A DNA stretch of 50,145 nucleotides from a virus (Duplodnaviria > Heunggongvirae > Uroviricota > Caudoviricetes), in IMG/VR virus record IMGVR_UViG_2579778539_000003, one strand, 5' to 3'. Positions within the stretch are counted from its first letter, which is position 1. Each line of letters starts with the position of its first letter. Both the position numbers and the translations under genes were made by a program. This document shows, piece by piece, positions 34,411 to 43,593 of the stretch. The notes below the pieces were generated by a model that did not search any database, was not told the DNA's origin, and saw only the letters and a list, made by a program, of their open reading frames with translations.

Positions 34411-35460
34411 TTACGCCAGTACGCCAATTGCCAGCGCGCGATCGATAAAACGAAATATCAGCTCCAGTTGGGAGCCATACTTATCTTCAAATGCCACTGT
34501 ATCCGTATGCAGCTCGTTGTGATGCTTTCTGCACAAAGGCAACACAAAGAGATCATGTGCTTTTGTTCCCATTCCGCCCTGCCCGTGACCAATCAGATGA
34601 TGCGGATCGTCGGCTGGCATACCGCAGCAAGCACACGGCTGTGTCTTAACCCAACGTGTGTATTTCTCCTTAACCCAGCGGCGACGTTTAGGCAGCTTCA
34701 TGAAAGATTCCGGAGACTCTGGATCAACGGTGATGCTTACCACCGTCTTTTCCTGTGGTGATTTTTGTTGCTGGTGGGCGTAAGGCAACGGTGCAAGATT
34801 TTTTGTGCGTTGTTTCAATATGCTGGTGGCGGTCTGCTCTCCCGGTACGATGTCGCTTTCGCGGTACACCGAGCAGATTTTTTCCGCTGGTAATCCCAGC
34901 GAACGACGCGATACAGCCTCAGGTAGTGCATCCACCACCTGATTGCAGACCGCCCACCAGGATAATTCAGCCAAAGATAATTCCCGCTCCTGCGTACCGC
35001 TTATTGCGTGACGGATGACGTCAATCACCCATGCTGTCAGATTTTGTTGAGCAAGCAGCTCCAGTGATTCCGATGTCTGGTCACGCAGTTGGTTGTCGCA
35101 GTGCCAGCACAACACCATTGCGCCGGTACCATAACGGTGAATGACTGTTTCAGTGTGATGGTAATCGCCATTAGGCCACTGGCAGGATGTAACATGACGT
35201 AATAGCCAGTCGGACAATGCGCCAACGCCGCCAGCAGAACGAATCACCCGTTCGTTACTAAAAAACGGCAGCAATGTTTTGTCTTCCGCCAGCGGCTGGC
35301 GAACGGCAGGAACGACTCCGGATGGCAGATTACGCATGCTTTTTGGTTCCGGTTCCACCAGCACTCGAGGATTATGAAATATCTGTATGGATTCACGGCC
35401 CGGCTTAAGGACCACCAGCCCAAGCTCAGGCACCAGAACAGGTCTAAGTAATACCCGCAC
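34411..35460 (-). CDS. ydfU: YdfU-like DUF968 protein with C-terminal HNH-like Cys/His motif
   Basis: 349 aa from GTG at 35460 preceded by GGAGGT; C-terminal CACCG...PHHLIGHG...CRKHHNELH. Confidence 0.75.
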   Translation of the reverse strand: MRVLLRPVLVPELGLVVLKPGRESIQIFHNPRVLVEPEPKSMRNLPSGVVPAVRQPLAEDKTLLPFFSNERVIRSAGGVGALSDWLLRHVTSCQWPNGDYHHTETVIHRYGTGAMVLCWHCDNQLRDQTSESLELLAQQNLTAWVIDVIRHAISGTQERELSLAELSWWAVCNQVVDALPEAVSRRSLGLPAEKICSVYRESDIVPGEQTATSILKQRTKNLAPLPYAHQQQKSPQEKTVVSITVDPESPESFMKLPKRRRWVKEKYTRWVKTQPCACCGMPADDPHHLIGHGQGGMGTKAHDLFVLPLCRKHHNELHTDTVAFEDKYGSQLELIFRFIDRALAIGVLA

Positions 35461-35461
35461 G

Positions 35462-35740
35462 TTACCTCCAGATCCGTTGCTGGAAAGTGCGGGACGCACG
35501 TGGTGGGCGTTCGGAATAAGGCAGCCTGACAGAGATTATCCAGTGCCGATAGTCGAGACTGAGAGCTTTCTTAACCTCGAACCCGCGCCTGCGGTAAGAA
35601 TGAATCAGCCATTCGGCCTGTTCTGCAGTGCATGGAGGGTGCTGGAACCATTCAGACTTGAATGCGTGAGAATACCGCCCGTGCGTGCAGGCAAGAACGG
35701 GCGAATTATCAGAATTGTAATATTTTGCGTTGCGTGCCAT
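35462..35740 (-). CDS. Hypothetical 92-aa protein
   Basis: ORF MARNAKYYNSDNSPVLACTHG...; tightly packed against the ydfU start. Confidence 0.5.
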   Translation of the reverse strand: MARNAKYYNSDNSPVLACTHGRYSHAFKSEWFQHPPCTAEQAEWLIHSYRRRGFEVKKALSLDYRHWIISVRLPYSERPPRASRTFQQRIWR

Positions 35741-35806
35741 CGGTTTTCTCCGGTGGCACGGTGTTACTCAGCGGGAGTTCAGCCCCGCGCAAGATTGTAG
35801 ATGAGT

Positions 35807-36058
35807 TTATTCTCCTGAAAAAGCAGAAAAGCCAGCTTTTATTCCGATCTCTTTCAATGCCTGTAATGAAGTGACAAACTCACCTTCGCGCAAGATAAAT
35901 CCGTCCGTGACCCGAGCATCCACAAAATTAATTAACGCAGCCCCATTCTTTCGCAAACACATAATGCGGTAATGACTAACAAGATTTCCATTTTCAACGC
36001 ACACAGCATAGAGGCCATCTTCACAAAAAATTTTACGCAGTTCTTCGATGTTCATCAT
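35807..36058 (-). CDS. rem: Small acidic protein, probably Rem (83 aa)
   Basis: 83-aa ORF with own promoter-like TTGAAG-18-TAGAAT and GGAAGG SD; length and position match K-12 rem. Confidence 0.55.
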   Translation of the reverse strand: MMNIEELRKIFCEDGLYAVCVENGNLVSHYRIMCLRKNGAALINFVDARVTDGFILREGEFVTSLQALKEIGIKAGFSAFSGE

Positions 36059-36173
36059 CAGAATCCTTCCGGATAATTAGCTCTCCCCTTTAAGGGACCA
36101 TCCCTCTTATCCCTGCGCGCTACTTAAGTATTTTTGATTCTATTCCGGCACCGTCCAGAACTTCAAACGCGTT

Positions 36174-36206
36174 GAAAATAAAAACAAAAACCCGCCGAAG
36201 CGGGTT
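36174..36206 (-). terminator. Rho-independent terminator downstream of hokD
   Basis: AACCCGC-CGAA-GCGGGTT hairpin followed by a long U-run on the minus strand. Confidence 0.6.
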
Positions 36207-36274
36207 AAGTGCGGGTGCGTTGAGGATGCCTGCCACATCAGAGGTGGCGAGGGATTTCTCCCCCGCCGGGTCTC

Positions 36275-36430
36275 TTACTCCTCAGGTTCGTAAGCTGTGA
36301 AGACAGCGACCTCCGTCTGGCCGGTTCGGATTCGTACCTCGCAGAGGTCTTTCCTCGTTACCAGTGCCGTCACTATGACGGTTAAACAGATGACGATCAG
36401 GGCGATTAACATCGCCTTTTGCTGCTTCAT
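36275..36430 (-). CDS. hokD: Hok-family type I toxin HokD (RelF)
   Basis: 51-aa MKQQKAMLIALIVICLTVIVTALVTRKDLCEVRIRTGQTEVAVFTAYEPEE; not in ORF track. Confidence 0.9.
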   Translation of the reverse strand: MKQQKAMLIALIVICLTVIVTALVTRKDLCEVRIRTGQTEVAVFTAYEPEE

Positions 36431-36501
36431 AGCCTGCTTCTCCTGTCAACGCAAAGCAGAAGTGTCACCTTCGGTGCGAAACAGAGATGTCATGCTTTGG
36501 T

Positions 36502-36789
36502 TCAGAGAATGCGTTTGACCGCCTCGCTATATACTTCCGAGCGTTCTCTTTTCCCAACAGAAATCACGAAAACGACAACTTTCTCGTCTATAACCTGGTA
36601 TACAAGGCGATAGCCTGAAGACCGGAGCTTAATCTTGTAACAATCAGGCATACCACGGAGCTTGTTTGCTTCAATCCGGGGTGACTCAAGTACTTCAACC
36701 AGCTTCTTTTTCAACTGTTCACGTACCGTCGAGCCCAGCTTTCGCCATTCCTTTAGTGCCCGCTCGTCAAAATCCAGAAAATACGCCAT
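36502..36789 (-). CDS. relE: RelE toxin (mRNA interferase)
   Basis: 95-aa ORF MAYFLDFDERALKEWRKL... Confidence 0.9.
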   Translation of the reverse strand: MAYFLDFDERALKEWRKLGSTVREQLKKKLVEVLESPRIEANKLRGMPDCYKIKLRSSGYRLVYQVIDEKVVVFVISVGKRERSEVYSEAVKRIL

Positions 36790-37028
36790 CAGAGTTCATC
36801 CAGCGTCACACGTACTGGCTTAGGATTACGAAGCCGTTCTTTCACTATCTCCACAAGTTCAGCATCTTCATCACTCAGGAGTGTCTGTTTGAACGGCAAG
36901 CGTTCATTGTCAGCGATATACTCGAGCATGAGACGAAGCGCTTCAGAAGGAGTTACACCCATTTTTTCAAGCGCGGCGTAAGAACGCGCTTTAAGTTCAT
37001 CGTCAATACGCAGGTTAATGCTACCCAT
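36789..37028 (-). CDS. relB: RelB antitoxin (RHH)
   Basis: 79-aa ORF MGSINLRIDDELKARSYA...; stop/start overlap with relE. Confidence 0.9.
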   Translation of the reverse strand: MGSINLRIDDELKARSYAALEKMGVTPSEALRLMLEYIADNERLPFKQTLLSDEDAELVEIVKERLRNPKPVRVTLDEL

Positions 37029-37040
37029 GTCTTACACCTC

Positions 37041-37066
37041 TTGTAATTACAAATGTCATTACAAGT
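37041..37066. promoter_or_regulatory. relBE operator repeats (TTGTAATTACAA / TGTCATTACAAG)
   Basis: Tandem palindromic hexad repeats 13-38 nt upstream of the relB start. Confidence 0.6.
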
Positions 37067-37358
37067 ATCGCACTACAACATGCTTAGGGCAAGTCACGAA
37101 GGAAGTCAGAAAGTAGTCGTAAGAACGGTGATCACTGTCCGCTTTGTGCCAGGAGCAGCCATTGCTAAGTCCATCCTGTATTGTGCAGGTCAGCTCGTTT
37201 TTAAAGAGTCCGGCCATCATCTTACTGGTACAGACACCATATACTTTGTGACGGTCAGGCTACATATGCACAACTCAACTTATTCATCTATTTTTTGCTT
37301 TAGCATGTCAGTGTTGCTTTCTCGTCGGCGGGTGAGCGGTGACCTGACCTGTCGATAA
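37053..37358 (+). CDS. ydfV: YdfV-like 101-aa ORF (weak coding evidence)
   Basis: Length and position match K-12 ydfV annotation; no convincing RBS or domain. Confidence 0.25.
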   Translation: MSLQVSHYNMLRASHEGSQKVVVRTVITVRFVPGAAIAKSILYCAGQLVFKESGHHLTGTDTIYFVTVRLHMHNSTYSSIFCFSMSVLLSRRRVSGDLTCR

Positions 37359-37510
37359 AGGAACGTAACACGTTTTATGCAACACCCGCATGCGGCAGAA
37401 AATTATTGCCGAACGTTTACCCCTGTCAACAAGCTTTACTTTCTGAGGCGCGCCAGCCCGCGAGGAAAACAATCTGAACATCAAACAATTAATGACACAA
37501 GAAATACGAT

Positions 37511-37537
37511 TAAAGATTTTTTTGTGCATGCCGATAG
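37511..37537 (+). promoter_or_regulatory. Sigma-28 (FliA) class-3 promoter for flxA
   Basis: TAAAGATT-N11-GCCGATAG matches consensus TAAAGTTT-N11-GCCGATAA, 24 nt upstream of the flxA ATG. Confidence 0.6.
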
Positions 37538-37560
37538 TGCTTTTTTAAAAGGAGAAATCT

Positions 37561-37893
37561 ATGTCTGTCACAATTCAGGGAAATACCTCAACCGTTATTT
37601 CAAACAACTCCGCCCCGGAAGGAACATCAGAAATAGCCAAAATCACAAGACAAATTCAGGTGCTGACTGAAAAGCTTGGGAAAATCTCATCGGAAGAGGG
37701 GATGACGACACAGCAGAAAAAAGAAATGGCTGCATTGGTACAGAAGCAAATTGAAAGCCTCTGGGCTCAACTGGAGCAGTTGTTAAGGCAGCAGGCAGAG
37801 AAAAAGAATGAAGACGCGACAGTTCAGCCTGATAAAAAAGAAGAGAAAAAAGACGATACAAATACCGCTGGCACCATTGATATTTACGTCTAA
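37561..37893 (+). CDS. flxA: FlxA (FliA-regulated protein)
   Basis: 110-aa ORF MSVTIQGNTSTVISNNSAPEG...; GGAG RBS. Confidence 0.85.
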   Translation: MSVTIQGNTSTVISNNSAPEGTSEIAKITRQIQVLTEKLGKISSEEGMTTQQKKEMAALVQKQIESLWAQLEQLLRQQAEKKNEDATVQPDKKEEKKDDTNTAGTIDIYV

Positions 37894-37907
37894 GTGACAG
37901 CCGTATT

Positions 37908-37930
37908 GTGGCCCTCATCGGGCCACTTTT
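37908..37930 (+). terminator. Rho-independent terminator of flxA
   Basis: GTGGCCC-TCATC-GGGCCAC followed by TTTT. Confidence 0.7.
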
Positions 37931-38149
37931 CGCCATCAGCCTTTTCTTTAAAGACATATTATCTTTGTATCATTTCTGATAGTTAACATTACAAGATATA
38001 AGTAATGGACGCACTCCCAATTAGTCTATTTAAATCGCCACGAGTTTAACTGACAACCCATGATCAATTATGAATTGCAACTATTTCTGTAGTCACTTTT
38101 GTGGGGACAGTCCACAAAACTGCCAACTTCCGCTTCTTGCTCTTAGCGG

Positions 38150-39765
38150 ACATTAGCATAGGCTATTTACCATAACGCCTCATTACGCGCACCGCCCAGA
38201 CTGACTCAGCGCGTTTCTGGCATATCCCCGGTAAAACAAGTAACAAACCACCCGAAAATGAACACCAGAAACGCGACTTAAGAATCTACCCTATGAATGG
38301 ATATGCACTCAACCGAATCGATCTTGGTTTCAATCTTTTTTATCGGGATCAGGCTTCTTTTTAGGTAACTTCGGGGGCTTAACTTGCTGATGACTTTGCG
38401 TTCGGCGCGTAAGCCAGGGATGGTCAGCTTTAGGTTTAACATAGTATTTTGAGCGTAAATCAATACGGGCATTATCCACTCGTTCATGGACACTCTTTTC
38501 ATCATCCAGTGGTATAGGCTCCGGGCCATCAACATACTTTTCCCAGCCCAGCGCTTTCCCGTCATACAGAACGTTAATTTCACCGTCAAAGTTCTCGCAT
38601 ACAGTAACAACCGAATGCCTAAGTCGATATCCCCGGCCCTCACTGCGTACCTGAAACGCACTGCTTTTGTACTGGAAAGTGAGATTTTTAGACAGAACGC
38701 GCTTCGCCTGTAGGCTGAAGATATAACCCAGTTCCTCTTCAGAATGGTGCACATCAAGATGAGCATTATCAGTAGTACGAGGCGACGTAGCGAACCGGTT
38801 GTTATAGGCTTCAATAAAGGTCGGCAACCATGCATTTGCTGTTTCAATATCACTGATATTCTGAAGCCGCATTTCTTTGACCAGCCTGTCCTGTAGTGTC
38901 TGATTGGCGCGCTCTACCCGCCCTTTTGCCTGCGGGCTGTTGGCATGGATTGGCTCGATGCCCAGTGTCTTTATCGCACGAGTGAACTGGGTCAGCTCAC
39001 CTTCCCGCTCTGGGTTATTTACCCTGAATATACTGTGTCTATCAGAGTAGAGAGCGAGCGGTACGCCATGATCATTAAGGTAACCCCGGAGGGTTTCCAT
39101 GTAAGCCCGGGTTGTTTCAGCAGGCACAAAACGCAACGCCATCAACGCACTGGTGGCATCATCAATGAAAACGATCAGTGTACATCTGGGGCCTCGATTT
39201 TCAAACCAGTCATGAGGTGAGCCATCAATCTGGATCAGTTCACCGTAAGATGGTCGTCGCATGCGGCGTTGATATATACGGGCAATTTTACGACGGCGTT
39301 CACGCCATAACCCCTCTTCTATCATCCACTTTCTGAGAGTTTCAACGGATAAAGATAAACCGTGTATCTCGCGCAATTTTTCGCACGCAAACGTAGGTCC
39401 AAAATCAGCGTAACGGCCTTTGAGGAGTGAAATTACTGTTGCTCTGAATTCAGTAGAAAAGGAATTATTAGGACGCTTTCCACGTCGGTGGGAAACCAGA
39501 CCAGAAGGCCCTTCATTTCTATACCGTTGCACCAGACGTTTAACCTGCCGAATAGAAATGCCAATGCGTGCCGCAGCTTGTTCCTGAATAATCTGAAGTC
39601 GGTGGAGTTCCTTATGACTCATCGTAACAGTCTCTTTGATCATGAAAAATCCCCCAGAGAATTGTCTGGGGACATTTTAGAATGGTTCAAAGGGGACATT
39701 ACAGCTTGGTGTTAACAATAGCCTGCTTCTCCGTGCCTTTCGGCACGTAAGAGGCTAACCTACAT
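38150..39765 (-). mobile_element. Putative single-ORF IS element (IS481-like); boundaries approximate
   Basis: Encodes a DDE/rve transposase; ends only tentatively placed from weak terminal similarity (TAGG...GCCTC.TTACG.G). Confidence 0.4.
38330..39643 (-). CDS. DDE-type (rve integrase-core) transposase with N-terminal HTH
   Basis: 437-aa ORF; HTH GISIRQVKRLVQRYRNEG; core IQIDGSPHDWF...VFIDDATS...SDRHSIF...; Lys-rich C-terminus. Confidence 0.8.
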   Translation of the reverse strand: MIKETVTMSHKELHRLQIIQEQAAARIGISIRQVKRLVQRYRNEGPSGLVSHRRGKRPNNSFSTEFRATVISLLKGRYADFGPTFACEKLREIHGLSLSVETLRKWMIEEGLWRERRRKIARIYQRRMRRPSYGELIQIDGSPHDWFENRGPRCTLIVFIDDATSALMALRFVPAETTRAYMETLRGYLNDHGVPLALYSDRHSIFRVNNPEREGELTQFTRAIKTLGIEPIHANSPQAKGRVERANQTLQDRLVKEMRLQNISDIETANAWLPTFIEAYNNRFATSPRTTDNAHLDVHHSEEELGYIFSLQAKRVLSKNLTFQYKSSAFQVRSEGRGYRLRHSVVTVCENFDGEINVLYDGKALGWEKYVDGPEPIPLDDEKSVHERVDNARIDLRSKYYVKPKADHPWLTRRTQSHQQVKPPKLPKKKPDPDKKD

Positions 39766-39977
39766 GTGTCTAGCATGAAATTGGCCTCAGATTAATGTTA
39801 AGCGTCTTGCAGGACGCGTAATGTTAACTGGGGCTTTTCTCTATCTGCCGTTGGTGTCCATGCCCGAGGCAGATAGCCTCAAGCACCCGCAGTCATTCTA
39901 CTTAACTAAGATTTCCCCGCAAACCGTTTTTGTCCAGCACAGTAAATATCCAACTAAACCAATGGAGTTCGCTGTAT

Positions 39978-40157
39978 TTACCGCCAGTATTCAATGCACA
40001 TGACCGCCATGAACACCCCTAAAAAAAGGGCATTTATATATCCAAATATTAATATCAAAACATCAACTTTTTCCATATACCTTGCTGTGAAGATGATGGG
40101 CATACATGATGCGAACAACCAGAACGCAACAAACAAAAACTGCAATGCGTTTTTCAT
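39978..40157 (-). CDS. Candidate 59-aa two-TM small membrane protein
   Basis: ATG preceded by AGGAGG (spacer AATA); MKNALQFLFVAFWLFASCMPIIFTARYMEKVDVLILIFGYINALFLGVFMAVMCIEYWR. Confidence 0.45.
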   Translation of the reverse strand: MKNALQFLFVAFWLFASCMPIIFTARYMEKVDVLILIFGYINALFLGVFMAVMCIEYWR

Positions 40158-40399
40158 TATTCCTCCTACAATCAATGTGCAATTACATTTAAACACACCT
40201 CAATTTGGCCGGACATATAAATATCTAAACCAGAAAAAATCACTTACATAGCGTTACAAACTCTTTAGTCTAAAGGTTCATCGTAAAACATTCCCCATAC
40301 TTATCAGTCCGTTCCGCGCCAGGTAGCTCATTGCCTTATCTGGCAACCTGTAATCAGGTTTCCGCTTTTTCAGTTGGCTGGTCGTTTAACCGACATAGT

Positions 40400-41220
40400 T
40401 AATCCATTAATCTAGTTGCCGGATGTTGGTGGATTTTCGCGTTTTAGTTGTTCATAAAAGTGCACAGCTTTAACCAGTTCTTCTGATGTAACTGGGACTG
40501 GTGAGGCAGTGAATAAGGCCTGAATTTGATAGTTCGGCCTGTCGTTACAATCCTCTTTTTTCGGTACATATTTCCAGTCACCAGACCACTACTTCCCCTG
40601 AAAGTCCGTAACGCCTTTTTTCACGTAGCGATATCGCCATGCCACTGGTTTTGCTTGCCCCGCCGTTTCATGCCCTTCCTGATAATTAATCTCGCTCATT
40701 CATCGCCCCACTCATCACAATATGCTTCGACCGGAGTTTTTCCCGCTTCATAGTCATCACGCTAGGATTCGACATCAGCAGCACTTCCACCGCGTAACTC
40801 ACCATAGTCCATTAATAGTTCATCCCGCTCTTCAAAACTGATGTTATATTTAGCTGAACAAAAATCAGCCACTTTGTTCTTCCTCATCGTCTTTTATTTC
40901 GTGGTATGAGTAATTGCAGTAGTTAAAGAAAATTTCTTATGCTCCGTCATGAATTTCCTCAGGTGTTGCGTCATCGTCCACTTCGAATACATCCTCAAAA
41001 TCTCCACCAGCTATTCCCGTTTCAATAATAATTTTGAACTTTCGCATTTCACTACCGCCCTTTCGGGCGGCCTCCTGATGTTCTGAGGGTGCAGAAATCC
41101 ATCCGGTTAAGGATTAAATTTTATTTACAGAACTGAATTTAATTATTCAGATATACGTATCTGTAGCCTTACGAATCTACTCACTGGATGCCTCTTTCAT
41201 AAAAATAATCCAGTGGGTTT
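40400..41220 (-). pseudogene. Decayed nin-region small ORFs (one about 96-codon frame interrupted by in-frame TAG at 40589-40591)
   Basis: Several short overlapping minus-strand ORFs with weak RBS; ...VTDFQGK*WSGDWKYVPKK... reads through an amber. Confidence 0.3.
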
Positions 41221-41309
41221 TATCGTTTTTTCCCTGTTCGTTGACAGATAACAGGTTTTCTGTCTGTCAGTGCCAGAATCTGGCTTACCGGTATTTGCGT
41301 TTCATTCCA

Positions 41310-41666
41310 TTAAAAAATCAGAACGCCGTGCGGCCTCAACACCCGAAAGGCTTCTTTAAATCTCTGTCGCGAATCATCACGCCAGGCATCTTTATTCAGC
41401 CGTCCATATTTCTTTCCCATCCAGGCGTTATCACCAACACTCTCAAGATGCGGAGGGTCTAATACAACCATCGAAAAAGATGCGTCTGCAAATGATAATG
41501 CACGAAAATCTGCGATAATGTCAGGGCTGATAATCAAGCGTCTCCCATTGCGTAATGTGTATCCTTCTTTTCTGATATCGCTGAATATCGCCCGTTCGTC
41601 AGACTTATCGAACCAGAACATGCGGCTGCCACAGCACATATCAAGAATGGTTGCCGGTGCACTCAC
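41310..41666 (-). CDS. Small DNA N6-adenine/N4-cytosine-type methyltransferase (possibly truncated)
   Basis: 118-aa ORF with SAM-binding-like ILDMCCGSR and catalytic-like VVLDPPHL; GTG start overlaps upstream stop (GTGA). Confidence 0.6.
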   Translation of the reverse strand: MSAPATILDMCCGSRMFWFDKSDERAIFSDIRKEGYTLRNGRRLIISPDIIADFRALSFADASFSMVVLDPPHLESVGDNAWMGKKYGRLNKDAWRDDSRQRFKEAFRVLRPHGVLIF

Positions 41667-42085
41667 TGCGCCACGTCCTGAAAATTACCCTGATAGAAAG
41701 CCAGTATGCGCTGCATAACTTCGCTCTTCCGGCACTCGCGACAGATTATGTTTAGGCGACTGTCGTAGCGACGTATTTCTCCGTCAGGTGATGACCAGAT
41801 AAGGTCCGGATCAACCACAGCAGGTTTCTTCACCTTTGCCCTCGAGAGTTTTTTGCGGGCGTTTTGCCAGTCCTTACGCGCCTGTTCAGAGGGGAATAAC
41901 CCGTAGCCGGAGTTGTATACATCGCCACTGGCTACCAGCTCTCTGGCAAGAACGCTCATCAGATATCTAGTCGCACCTGTTTTAGCTTCCAGTTGCCGTA
42001 ACGTCTCACGGCCGCTCTGGCGCACGAGTTCCACCACCTGCCATTTAATTTTTTCCCGCTCTTCTTGTGTAAAAACTTTTGCCAC
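41663..42085 (-). CDS. Hypothetical 140-aa protein, translationally coupled to the MTase
   Basis: ORF MAKVFTQEEREKIKWQVVELVRQSGRETLRQLEAKTGATRYL... with possible HTH; 4-nt overlap with downstream gene. Confidence 0.6.
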   Translation of the reverse strand: MAKVFTQEEREKIKWQVVELVRQSGRETLRQLEAKTGATRYLMSVLARELVASGDVYNSGYGLFPSEQARKDWQNARKKLSRAKVKKPAVVDPDLIWSSPDGEIRRYDSRLNIICRECRKSEVMQRILAFYQGNFQDVAQ

Positions 42086-42125
42086 AAGTCCCCCTTAAAA
42101 TTACCTCATGACCTGAAATCAACAC

Positions 42126-43091
42126 TTATCCTCTGAAACCAGGCGGAATTTCTGTATCCGGTTCAGAAATATGATTAACACAACGCTGTACAGGTGAACG
42201 TCCCAGGCGGATGACCAGTTCGTCCCATTTTTCGCGGAGCTTTGACGGGCTCATGATGTTTTTTACCCAGAATGGATCTCGCTGAACCCGACCAAACATT
42301 TCGCAAATTTGTCTGTGGCTTCTGCCATCCAGCATCCGCATTGTGCGCACGTCATTGGCCCAGGCAGTCCAGTTAGGCTCTTTTGGTCGCATGATCTCGC
42401 CATCATCACTGGCTGCCTGTTCGTAGAGACCCACGATCCGCCCCCAGATCCACTGCGCACACGCCAAATCCTCCCTGCTACCCCACTGGCGTTTTTTCGC
42501 ACTAAACACAACCGCGTCGGAGTTCCGGGTTAAAAAATCCTGTTCAGTCGTCTGCGGGTCCGGTTGCGAAGCTTCCGGACGAAAAGTGTTTTTATTCTCT
42601 GTAGTAATCTCTGTTGTATTCTCTGTAAGATCATCAGGCCATTTTGACCCGATGACATTGGGTCGTTTTGAACCAATGGAGCGTTTCATTTTGACCTCTT
42701 CCATCGTGTCATTTTGACCTGATGGAGCGGCGCATTTTGAACCGATGGATTCGCTCAATTTGCCACCATCTAAAAGCTCGCTCCCATAGTTGATCGTGTA
42801 GAAATTGGTCATATCGCGCTTTGATTTATTGAGCTTTTCACAACGCAAAAGCCCCAGCGTTTTCAGACTTGCAAACGCGCGCTTTAACGTTGACTCTGAC
42901 CAGAATGGGAACTGTTCCAGCCATTGTTCCGTTGTGTTATAAATCCAGCGAACACCATCACATTCCATGCCGGAGATGGTATCTCTCAACCAGTAGTGCA
43001 GTTGTTGCAAAACAATGGCTTCGTTTAAGCCAATTTTCATTGCCAGCTGCGTGTTTATAACCAGTGGGCGTTCAGCAAAAAGAAGGCTCAT
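42126..43091 (-). CDS. Replication initiator, O-like (start taken at internal ATG; ORF track starts at TTG 43145)
   Basis: Iteron array lies in the middle of the ORF (linker SIGSK repeats); lambda-O-like organisation; C-terminal region resembles primosomal DnaT-like domain. Confidence 0.6.
   Translation of the reverse strand: MSLLFAERPLVINTQLAMKIGLNEAIVLQQLHYWLRDTISGMECDGVRWIYNTTEQWLEQFPFWSESTLKRAFASLKTLGLLRCEKLNKSKRDMTNFYTINYGSELLDGGKLSESIGSKCAAPSGQNDTMEEVKMKRSIGSKRPNVIGSKWPDDLTENTTEITTENKNTFRPEASQPDPQTTEQDFLTRNSDAVVFSAKKRQWGSREDLACAQWIWGRIVGLYEQAASDDGEIMRPKEPNWTAWANDVRTMRMLDGRSHRQICEMFGRVQRDPFWVKNIMSPSKLREKWDELVIRLGRSPVQRCVNHISEPDTEIPPGFRG
42631..42742. repeat. Origin iterons: 4-5 copies of ATTTTGA(A/C)C(C/T)GATGGAGCG at about 23-25 bp spacing, adjacent AT-rich tract at 42588-42630
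   Basis: Direct repeats at 42631, 42656, (degenerate 42678), 42701, 42724. Confidence 0.6.
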
Positions 43092-43593
43092 AATTCCATC
43101 CAGCTTTTTGTTGGTATTGCTGTCGATACGCAAGTTTGAAAGCAATTGCTTTTTCTATAAGTTCGTCAGTTTCACGATCCACTACGGCAGGATCAGCAAA
43201 AAGCAGTCCGGACTCCACCACATCGCCATATTCTTTGTTTAACCCGGCGATCATGCACGTGATGCTTTTTCCGTCAGTAATTTCACGATACAACCTGAAA
43301 TCATTAATCCGGATAGCCTCCATAATTGCAGGCACTAGCGCCGTGAACTTTTCACGCTTATCCCTGGTGTCGATAGCCTTCCAGCGTTCAAATATCTTCA
43401 CTCGATTAACGCCAAGCGCTCGCTGATCAATCGCGCCACCTTCATATGTGACACGCTGAACATCGATGTTCGGGCGCTCTTTCAAAGCCCAGAATGCTTC
43501 AGTGATTAATATCGTCGCCTGCTCCTGTGTCATTCCTGGTCGACATATCCAGGCATCCAGAGCCTCACGAGCCTGTTCAGGAGTGATTTTCAT
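43072..43593 (-). CDS. Hypothetical 173-aa protein downstream of dicC (cII-position gene)
   Basis: ORF MKITPEQAREALDAWICRPGMTQ...; overlaps dicC 3' end by 17 nt. Confidence 0.6.
   Translation of the reverse strand: MKITPEQAREALDAWICRPGMTQEQATILITEAFWALKERPNIDVQRVTYEGGAIDQRALGVNRVKIFERWKAIDTRDKREKFTALVPAIMEAIRINDFRLYREITDGKSITCMIAGLNKEYGDVVESGLLFADPAVVDRETDELIEKAIAFKLAYRQQYQQKAGWNYEPSFC

Follow-up and report, generated by a model that had tools for sequence, protein, structure and literature searches.

A 50,145-nucleotide stretch of viral DNA (IMG/VR record IMGVR_UViG_2579778539_000003; hereafter the window) is a lambdoid E. coli prophage of Qin type in its full length and carries a gene, tnp, for a DDE transposase. 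Comparison with related prophages and with relatives in other genera makes it very probable that tnp belongs to a single ISEsa1-type DDE transposon (IS1202 family), which occupies positions 36444–39717. This 3274-bp unit contains a left inverted repeat (IRL), tnp, flxA, ydfV, relB, relE and a right inverted repeat (IRR). As judged from the alignments, its target is the start codon of hokD, and the insertion was precise, hitting no phage open reading frame (ORF) besides the hok/sok locus. On balance, we favor the broader view that ISEsa1-type elements would form a family of cargo transposons, stabilized by a toxin–antitoxin pair, that home in one orientation to hok translation starts, each cutting hok from Sok control and fusing it to relBE. 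Comparison loci carry L-numbers, and coordinates are those of the window unless a locus is named.

Ends and extent of the transposon

The features that define the transposon, from its left end to its right end, are the following:

39718–39732, minus strand: left copy of the target-site duplication, GGAGAAGCAGGCTAT
39644–39717, minus strand: IRL, 5'-TGTTAACACCAAGCTGTAATGTCCCC-N17-ATGTCCCC, with two TGTCCCC repeats 24 nt apart
38330–39643, minus strand: transposase gene tnp, an ORF of 437 amino acids with helix-turn-helix (HTH) and rve-type core
38125–39717, minus strand: conserved left module ('ISEsa1' as catalogued), comprising IRL, tnp and a 205-bp tail ending ...GCGGA(CA), delimited by the limits of homology in about 25 loci of other genera
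38089–38127, no strand: hairpin with GGGGACA, an inverted repeat found in the window
37156–38124, no strand: variable cargo of 969 bp with most of ydfV, flxA and the hairpin; no homology to other family members here
37561–37893, plus strand: flxA, with a FlxA domain
37053–37358, plus strand: ydfV, mostly within the cargo segment
36444–37155, minus strand: conserved right module, comprising about 130 bp 5' of relB, relB, relE and IRR; 90–99% identical blocks in L093, L085, L029, L025, L032 and L054
36789–37028, minus strand: antitoxin gene relB (NF008412, 133 bits, cutoff 96)
36502–36789, minus strand: toxin gene relE (TIGR02385, 54.7 bits, cutoff 27.9)
36444–36494, minus strand: IRR, bipartite, ...CATGACA-N17-GGTGACACTTCTGCTTTGCGTTGACA-3', with its ACA end at 36444; layout read from the sequence
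36429–36443, minus strand: right copy of the target-site duplication, GGAGAAGCAGGCTAT, which recreates the hokD ribosome-binding site and the 'AT' of ATG

The 15-mer stands perfectly repeated just outside both termini. Its two copies are its sole occurrences in the window, and it is single-copy at the uninterrupted sites of two related prophages, L011 (E. coli ACN001) and L094, both of which are collinear with the window on either side of the empty site (95.6–98.4% and 94.7–98.4% identity, respectively). On the left, positions 39718–39908 with the displaced hok leader are 98.4% identical to the intact hokD leader of L011, the match stopping at the "AT" of the hok ATG; on the right, positions 35000–36444, from hokD downward, are collinear with the L011 hokD locus. 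Alignment to insertion-free prophages, a check proposed by a first-pass annotation that a model had made from the letters of the window, thus gave the ends, the 15-bp duplication and the disrupted gene, hokD. The same annotation had placed an inserted DDE element here. The uninterrupted L011 and L094 bear it out in that this is an inserted transposable element and not a resident phage gene, but it drew the borders too tightly, the unit in all likelihood running from 36444 to 39717.

Both termini match those of relatives. Comparison with the roughly 25 loci of other genera places a sharp left boundary at 39717, beginning 5'-TGTTAACACCAAGCTGTAATGTCCCC on the minus strand, and the IRR 26-mer matches the right ends of simple multi-copy relatives in Hahella, Rhabdochlamydiaceae and Chromatiales as well as those of plasmid transposons. 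By eye, IRL and IRR agree at 22 of 30 positions. The tips read 5'-TGT...ACA-3', and each end has paired subterminal repeats (TGTCCCC twice in IRL, GGTGACA plus CATGACA in IRR). The layout is that of IS1202-type termini, which have imperfect inverted repeats of 24–29 bp, with TGTTAAC...TAATGTCCCC in IRL, ...GGTGACACTTCTGCTTTGCGTTGACA in IRR, a TGTCCCC/GGTGACA block at positions 20–26 and a second repeat 24 nt further inward. The Hahella relative is a 1449-bp insertion sequence (IS) with 62% protein identity, present in 10 copies with 15–17-bp duplications and the ends TGTTAGCCC...GGGGACATTTTAGAATTGGGTTGACA; its tips, TGTTA...GTTGACA, are those of the window transposon, and the Rhabdochlamydiaceae and Chromatiales relatives share the tip. 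Duplications of 15–17 bp are typical of the long-duplication subgroup; here the length is 15 bp in the window and 15–16 bp in L093, L095, L045 and L102.

No inverted repeat bracketing the tnp ORF was found within 37800–40100. The first-pass annotation had also pointed to a recurring GGGGACA motif. Its three copies are real and the one at 38103 was placed exactly, but the other two lie at 39668 and 39692, not 39666 and 39690. Four occurrences in the window against 4.8 expected mean that the heptamer is not over-represented, and the three copies, being direct repeats, do not delimit an IS. The pair at 39668 and 39692 nevertheless has meaning, as it forms the subterminal repeats of IRL, whose 24-nt spacing is kept across the family.

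The same ends also bound much longer elements. On a Phytobacter plasmid, the IRL-tnp and relB-relE-IRR modules enclose ncr nickel and chr chromate resistance genes in an element of 12,843 bp, flanked by the duplication GGAGAAGTCAGCTAT, with a hok leader at its left and a plasmid hok ORF at its right; the empty site, joined in silico, is found uninterrupted in plasmid CP025983.1 at 99.7% identity. A 14,336-bp version on a Citrobacter freundii plasmid has the 16-bp duplication ATCACGGGGCACGATA and lies in an unrelated, non-hok gene. Its reconstructed empty site is covered to at least 80% by 106 plasmids, and the full-length matches, among those listed, are 100% identical to it. That the same two termini bound elements of 12.8 and 14.3 kb with other duplications and matching empty sites argues that the whole unit moves. 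Further complete elements are those of L045 (4275 bp, duplication copies identical at 15 of 15 positions), L102 (7694 bp, 16 of 16), L172 (4600 bp, 14 of 15) and L085 (2575 bp, 13 of 15), and metagenome contigs hold both an identical 3274-bp element and a 3301-bp version with the same duplication.

The 437-amino acid ORF is an ISEsa1-type transposase of the IS1202 family. That a rve-type transposase lies between flxA and the methyltransferase gene (41310–41666), as first annotated, held up in every part: the ORF, the HTH domains and the rve-type core were all found (Pfam HTH_32/29/28 and rve_3), and the protein matches the NCBIfam model 'ISNCY family transposase' with 456 bits (cutoff 250). 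The IS1202 family is defined by two extra Asp residues situated between the first catalytic Asp and the second and by Gln instead of Lys or Arg at E+7 (bioRxiv 10.1101/2022.12.17.520857). Behind its N-terminal HTH, the protein has catalytic residues D140, D201 and E244, the extra pair DD161-162 and Q251 seven residues past the catalytic Glu, each of them retained in aligned relatives whose identity goes as low as about 50%; this D..DD..D..E-N6-Q signature is the IS1202-family pattern. A 446-amino acid plasmid homologue found in Klebsiella, Enterobacter, Citrobacter and others (WP_004196353.1, labelled "IS1202-like element ISEsa1 family transposase") equals the window protein except for nine residues, QESINRHIT, which follow RLQII near the N-terminus. 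They are missing from the window through a 27-bp deletion between ATTAYTCAGGA repeats, and the gap falls in the DNA-binding region. The ORF is open in both alleles, and frameshifted copies occur in many relatives in other genera.

Some E. coli matches have 25–28 extra bases, which we had considered as a long IS1202-type target duplication; they are instead the 27-bp in-frame tnp indel and, in one strain, an unrelated 25-bp indel near flxA. In three RefSeq records whose DNA is identical to the window (NZ_CP032992.1, NZ_CP015995.1 and NZ_CP080235.1), the intact 437-amino acid ORF is called 'partial' and lacking its C-terminus, because the Prokaryotic Genome Annotation Pipeline (PGAP) gives the last 49 codons to a separate K-12-derived protein, YdfW. 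We also considered the hok promoter as the driver of tnp. A terminator-like hairpin (39651–39672) directly precedes the tnp ATG, making read-through from that promoter unlikely, and none of the leader ORFs runs into tnp.

Comparison of family members indicates a build of two conserved modules with a variable middle. The common transposase module ends near 38125 at ...GCGGA(CA), past which each locus is different, and the middle segment in other copies is 2–10 kb long. Beside the right end there is always a toxin–antitoxin pair. In the window these are type II genes, relB and relE, adjacent with a 1-nt overlap and both matched by curated models, and the same RelE accession, WP_000323025.1, is common to Qin-type E. 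coli records and plasmid transposons. In the Scandinavium element of L045 (L045:6275–7020), a GNAT-toxin/DUF1778-antitoxin-like pair, assigned by reading the ORF sequences, replaces relBE. A toxin–antitoxin operon beside IRR may thus be a general trait of these transposons. Among the plasmid copies, the first impression was that the IS always adjoins ncrY, which turned out to be cargo. At 38125–38160 (minus strand ...TAATGTCCGCTAAGAGCAAGAAGCGGA), the left module ends in an inverted repeat, TGTCCGC...GCGGACA, that resembles the inner end-repeat minus its outer 19 bp, and it is from exactly this point that the cargo diverges in every lineage.

The hok start codon as insertion site

Two parts of a hok/sok locus flank the transposon:

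39717–39888, minus strand: displaced sok antisense-RNA gene and hok mRNA leader, matched by the full Rfam model RF01794 (104.1 bits, gathering score 59, E = 1.3e-23)
36275–36430, minus strand: hokD (relF) coding sequence, an ORF with a Hok family match; the target gene, downstream of relBE and collinear with hokD of L011 and L094

In L011 and L094 the hok/sok locus is intact; in the window both parts are present but lie 3274 bp apart. The duplicated 15-mer is the ribosome-binding site plus the "AT" of the hokD start codon. The terminal AUG of the RF01794 model falls on the first transposon base in the window, with the same picture in five other loci, and that base turns the start codon of the hok leader from ATG into ATT. 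A self-BLAST of the hok leader against the hokD region returned no similarity beyond the 15-bp duplication. The right duplication copy rebuilds GGAG-N9-ATG before hokD, 71 nt after relE, and the resulting order relB-relE-hokD(relF) is the classic relBEF operon layout, with the sok gene and hok leader stranded 3.3 kb off by the transposase end. The proposal that the insertion may have inactivated part of the replication/nin module fails on these grounds: it was the hokD start that was hit, and the replication and nin genes are uninterrupted.

To survey targets, copies from genomes, plasmids and metagenomes were pooled, giving 97 left flanks that group into 60 clusters (92% identity). Hok leaders make up 29 of the 60 clusters, and most of them stop 0–2 nt from IRL; several others retain the ribosome-binding site and ATG of hok but not the whole leader, and one of these, L028, has the same 15-mer in the reverse orientation. 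As a pattern across these aligned flanks, the family shows a preference for precisely this point of hok loci and for a single orientation.

By analogy with its family, the transposase would bind the terminal repeats and the element would insert by a 15–16-bp staggered cut. Cargo between the transposase module and the right end (here flxA and ydfV) is swappable, with relBE fixed next to that end and presumed to act as an addiction module for the carrier replicon. In this prophage, the duplicated 15 bp give hokD an entire translation start immediately after relE, and sok and the hok leader are left beside the transposase end.

relBE is among the founding and most intensively studied toxin–antitoxin systems, and that hokD/relF is a hok gene lacking its regulators is an old observation. 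It is reported that relBE is co-transcribed with hokD (PMC5120126), and one paper states, citing Ramisetty and Santhosh (2016), that relBE of plasmid origin integrated into an ancestral hokD locus (PMC6379469). In the searchable literature we found no description of the vehicle that brought relBE to hokD, and nothing relevant tying ISEsa1, IS1202 or ISNCY to hok or relE.

Several flanks in the survey drew attention in their own right. In a Leclercia genome (L029:2891–2952) and to the left of IRL in a metagenome contig (L120), a relE-side right end is followed by a spacer of about 10–14 bp (GAAGGCTATG and GGGAGGTAAGGCCAT, respectively) and then by a left end; this tandem junction could have arisen if the regenerated hok start was targeted repeatedly, or it could be a structure resembling a circle junction that became fixed. 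In L008 (1400–1427), L102 and L168, the flank beside IRL reads ...GTATGGGTCC, ending GGAG(A/T)TGTATGGGTCC; the duplication in L102 is a genuine one, and in L008 this flank adjoins an ISKpn28 transposase gene. In a Kluyvera genome, an above-threshold Rfam match to the isrO small RNA (L025:2837–2950, 58.8 bits) takes in the left flank and runs 24 nt into IRL.

The prophage copy, its K-12 remnant and the adjoining tract

The part of tnp that K-12 lacks was found in 802 of 5426 complete E. coli genomes, with 796 best matches at 99% identity or more, almost always as a single, chromosomal copy. In an evenly spaced sample of these matches, about two-thirds have the 27-bp deletion seen in the window and about one-third the full 446-amino acid gene. 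It had been proposed at the outset that finding this gene at the same site, with intact flanks, in homologous prophages would mark it as a resident phage gene. About 800 E. coli genomes do share the site, but this is a single old insertion passed on with the prophage: the genome comparison indicates a copy that is old, single and fixed in Qin prophages.

K-12 has lost most of the element. Its sequence is collinear with the window up to 38514 (99.97% identity over 34950–38514) and resumes at 43314, which corresponds to a 4799-bp deletion of window positions 38515–43313. The deletion took the left 1.2 kb of the transposon and, in all, removed IRL, five-sixths of tnp, the sok leader, the pseudogene tract described below, the methyltransferase gene, a DUF977 gene, a replication gene and part of a ydaT-like gene. 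K-12 ydfW, which the first-pass annotation had suspected, along with intK, to be a remnant of the same event, is indeed the last 49 codons of tnp, as follows from the collinearity up to 38514; the K-12 intK pseudogene is presumably the same fragment. Collinearity thus indicates that ydfW, together with flxA-ydfV-relBE, is what the 4.8-kb deletion left of the transposon. Many other strains have also deleted tnp, and secondary IS insertions in and around the region are common in other strains. E. coli S1-INA-02-B (L009, equivalent to window 37950–38155) keeps a portion of ydfV, flxA and some 30 bp from the end of the transposase module, after which the DNA is unrelated. It has a further deletion derivative of the transposon, whose limits differ from those in K-12.

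Beyond the left end lies a tract that the first-pass annotation had described as AT-rich, holding only short ORFs, and decayed. The composition is as described (42% GC at 39733–41309 against 49.9% for the window), the ORFs are all short, and an in-frame TAG at 40589–40591 on the minus strand does break a frame starting at 40699. We rejected the idea that the tract is insertion debris: the first ~170 nt are the intact sok/hok leader, and the remainder, 39733–41150 apart from the leader, matches the corresponding L094 tract at 94.7% identity, and L094 is free of the transposon. Three pseudogenes, all outside the transposon, account for the decay:

40278–40699, minus strand: phage gene of about 140 codons, with the TAG at 40589–40591 and a frameshift; called 'frameshifted; internal stop' by PGAP in identical DNA and in L094
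40696–40887, minus strand: phage gene of 58 amino acids, TGG to TAG at 40762–40764; intact in L094
40865–41047, minus strand: DUF7167 gene, Lys to stop at 40937–40939; intact in L094

Because the tract is conserved in L094 without the transposon, and the ~140-codon gene is already a pseudogene there, the decay is independent of the insertion; it is real, arises from point mutations in small accessory genes and, by this comparison, predates the insertion. Just 5' of the sok leader, in the most AT-rich stretch (36% GC), lies a strongly hydrophobic ORF of 72 amino acids (39978–40196, minus strand) that matches nothing in Pfam or NCBIfam; in its place L011 carries another, dissimilar small hydrophobic ORF.

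The surrounding prophage follows the Qin gene order from cspB, cspF, ydfT, ydfU, rem, hokD, relE, relB, ydfV and flxA on to dicC and dicA, with the early-right phage genes on the minus strand of the window, and PhiR42_1, a 48.7-kb phage record from ECOR13, is 99.9% identical to it across 13 kb. The methyltransferase ORF is only 118 amino acids long, strain annotations of it vary between intact and 'frameshifted; internal stop', and unrelated genes take its position in L011 and L094. Just 3' of hokD, a weak Rfam match to the Hfq-binding small RNA isrK (36185–36266, minus strand, 25 bits, gathering score 50) ends in a terminator-like hairpin; this sub-threshold match probably reflects the 3' structure of hok mRNA.

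Alternative readings and known systems

Several points weigh against an active transposon that homes to hok. Its E. coli copies are essentially single and always in Qin (in the 802 genomes, a median of one place per genome and a maximum of three), with no sign of recent movement, and the transposase of the window copy is nine residues short. The GCGGACA hairpin at the end of the left module could mean that the structure goes back to an earlier 1.6-kb IS whose own tip was lost. Support is from comparative sequence throughout, and some hok-site copies could stem from homologous recombination between hok flanks.

A plain 1.6-kb ISEsa1 (38125–39717) might have inserted beside the hok leader, with relBE, ydfV and flxA arriving by one or more separate events; the catalogued ISEsa1 length of 1609 bp, the end of homology near 38125 in many loci and the end-repeat-like GCGGACA there would all fit. 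At 38125, however, there is neither a target duplication nor a GTTGACA terminus of the family type, and published work likewise found no duplication for those limits. The consensus right end occurs only beside relE, the 15-bp duplication encloses the whole 3274 bp, and the same termini enclose the 12.8-kb and 14.3-kb elements with their other duplications and matching empty sites. These points largely refute separate events, to which we give very little credence. It is about as improbable that tnp has become a domesticated, resident Qin gene kept for a phage or host function. Such a role would agree with its fixed position, its single copy in 802 of 5426 genomes at high identity (796 at 99% or more) and its open ORF in both the 437- and 446-amino acid alleles. 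Yet the gene is dispensable, being deleted in K-12 and many strains, the region elsewhere has commonly taken secondary IS insertions, many relatives in other genera are frameshifted, and prophages with empty sites exist; the high identity is more simply explained by recent common descent of the prophage.

A more serious alternative, unlikely but deserving some weight, accepts the transposon and attributes the frequency of hok starts not to target recognition by the transposase but to homologous recombination between hok flanks, or to selection, on mobile replicons, for sites where insertion does no harm. Among loci, the similarity of hok leaders and coding regions is 75–90%, enough that recombination could take place, about half of the contexts are non-hok, and three complete, duplication-flanked copies (L095, L045 and L085) lie in non-hok DNA. 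In both hok cases that could be tested, however, the two duplication copies match the local empty-site sequence (GCAGG in Qin, GTCAG in the plasmid), favoring fresh insertion over recombinational spread. The insertion point is constant within 2 nt in most of the 29 hok flank clusters, some of them only ~75% identical to each other, the orientation is constant except in L028, and hok loci are a tiny share of these genomes.

If ISEsa1-type elements do home to hok starts as we favor, the textbook K-12 relBE(F) locus and the flagellar-regulon gene flxA would be relics of one such insertion, and the same vehicle would spread resistance to nickel and chromate among plasmids of Klebsiella, Enterobacter and Citrobacter. 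Homing to hok would also give the IS1202 family, for which only dif sites had been described, another type of site-specific targeting, directed at a type I toxin gene's start codon. The transposon insertion with its defined ends in itself gives a concrete origin for relBE at hokD and for a hokD without regulators, with flxA and ydfV arriving on the same element. Hundreds of clinical plasmids have metal-resistance genes on this backbone, and delimiting it correctly therefore matters for their annotation and tracking.

ISEsa1 itself was published as a 1609-bp element with 15/22 inverted repeats, no detectable target duplication and no recognizable target, grouping in trees with ISCARN112 in a small separate group; no conserved target was found for IS1202 members with long duplications or none (PMC10132070). 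The left module at 38125–39717 is this IS, its 1593 bp and the 27-bp deletion agreeing with the catalogued 1609 bp. The difference is that the functional right end lies 1.7–12 kb beyond the catalogued end, by relE, and that there is a 15–16-bp duplication and a strong preference for hok starts. The catalogued limits do not behave as transposing ends, the complete, duplication-flanked copies all ending beside a toxin–antitoxin operon 1–12 kb beyond them. The published description thus appears to cover the left module only and to be mis-delimited, which would explain the missing duplication and target in the catalogue.

Within the family, the ISTde1 subgroup (bioRxiv 10.1101/2022.12.17.520857) shares 15–17-bp duplications, 5'-TGT tips, a conserved block near position 20 and a DDE core with the extra DD and Q at E+7, whereas the ISEsa1-type elements of Enterobacteriaceae add a toxin–antitoxin operon and kilobases of cargo. 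The ISAjo2/ISAba32 subgroup of dif/pdif 'site hunters' is likewise orientation-specific, inserts at a fixed distance from a short signal and encodes no accessory targeting proteins; xrs targeting has been reported only for the ISAba32 subgroup (bioRxiv 10.1101/2022.12.17.520857). Its members, however, use XerC/D sites, inserting 5 bp from XerC sites with 5-bp duplications, in place of a hok translation start and 15–16 bp. Transporter IS (tIS) elements such as ISKpn21, ISKpn65 and ISRel10 are also of the IS1202 family and carry passenger genes inside their inverted repeats, but theirs is one extra ORF, as against a cargo here of about 1 kb (flxA and ydfV) to over 10 kb (ncr and chr), plus a toxin–antitoxin pair next to the right end. 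The relBEF/truncated hokD (relF) locus of K-12 is the same DNA, and the difference lies in how its integration is resolved: as a transposon with ends, a target duplication and an empty site, and with flxA and ydfV included.

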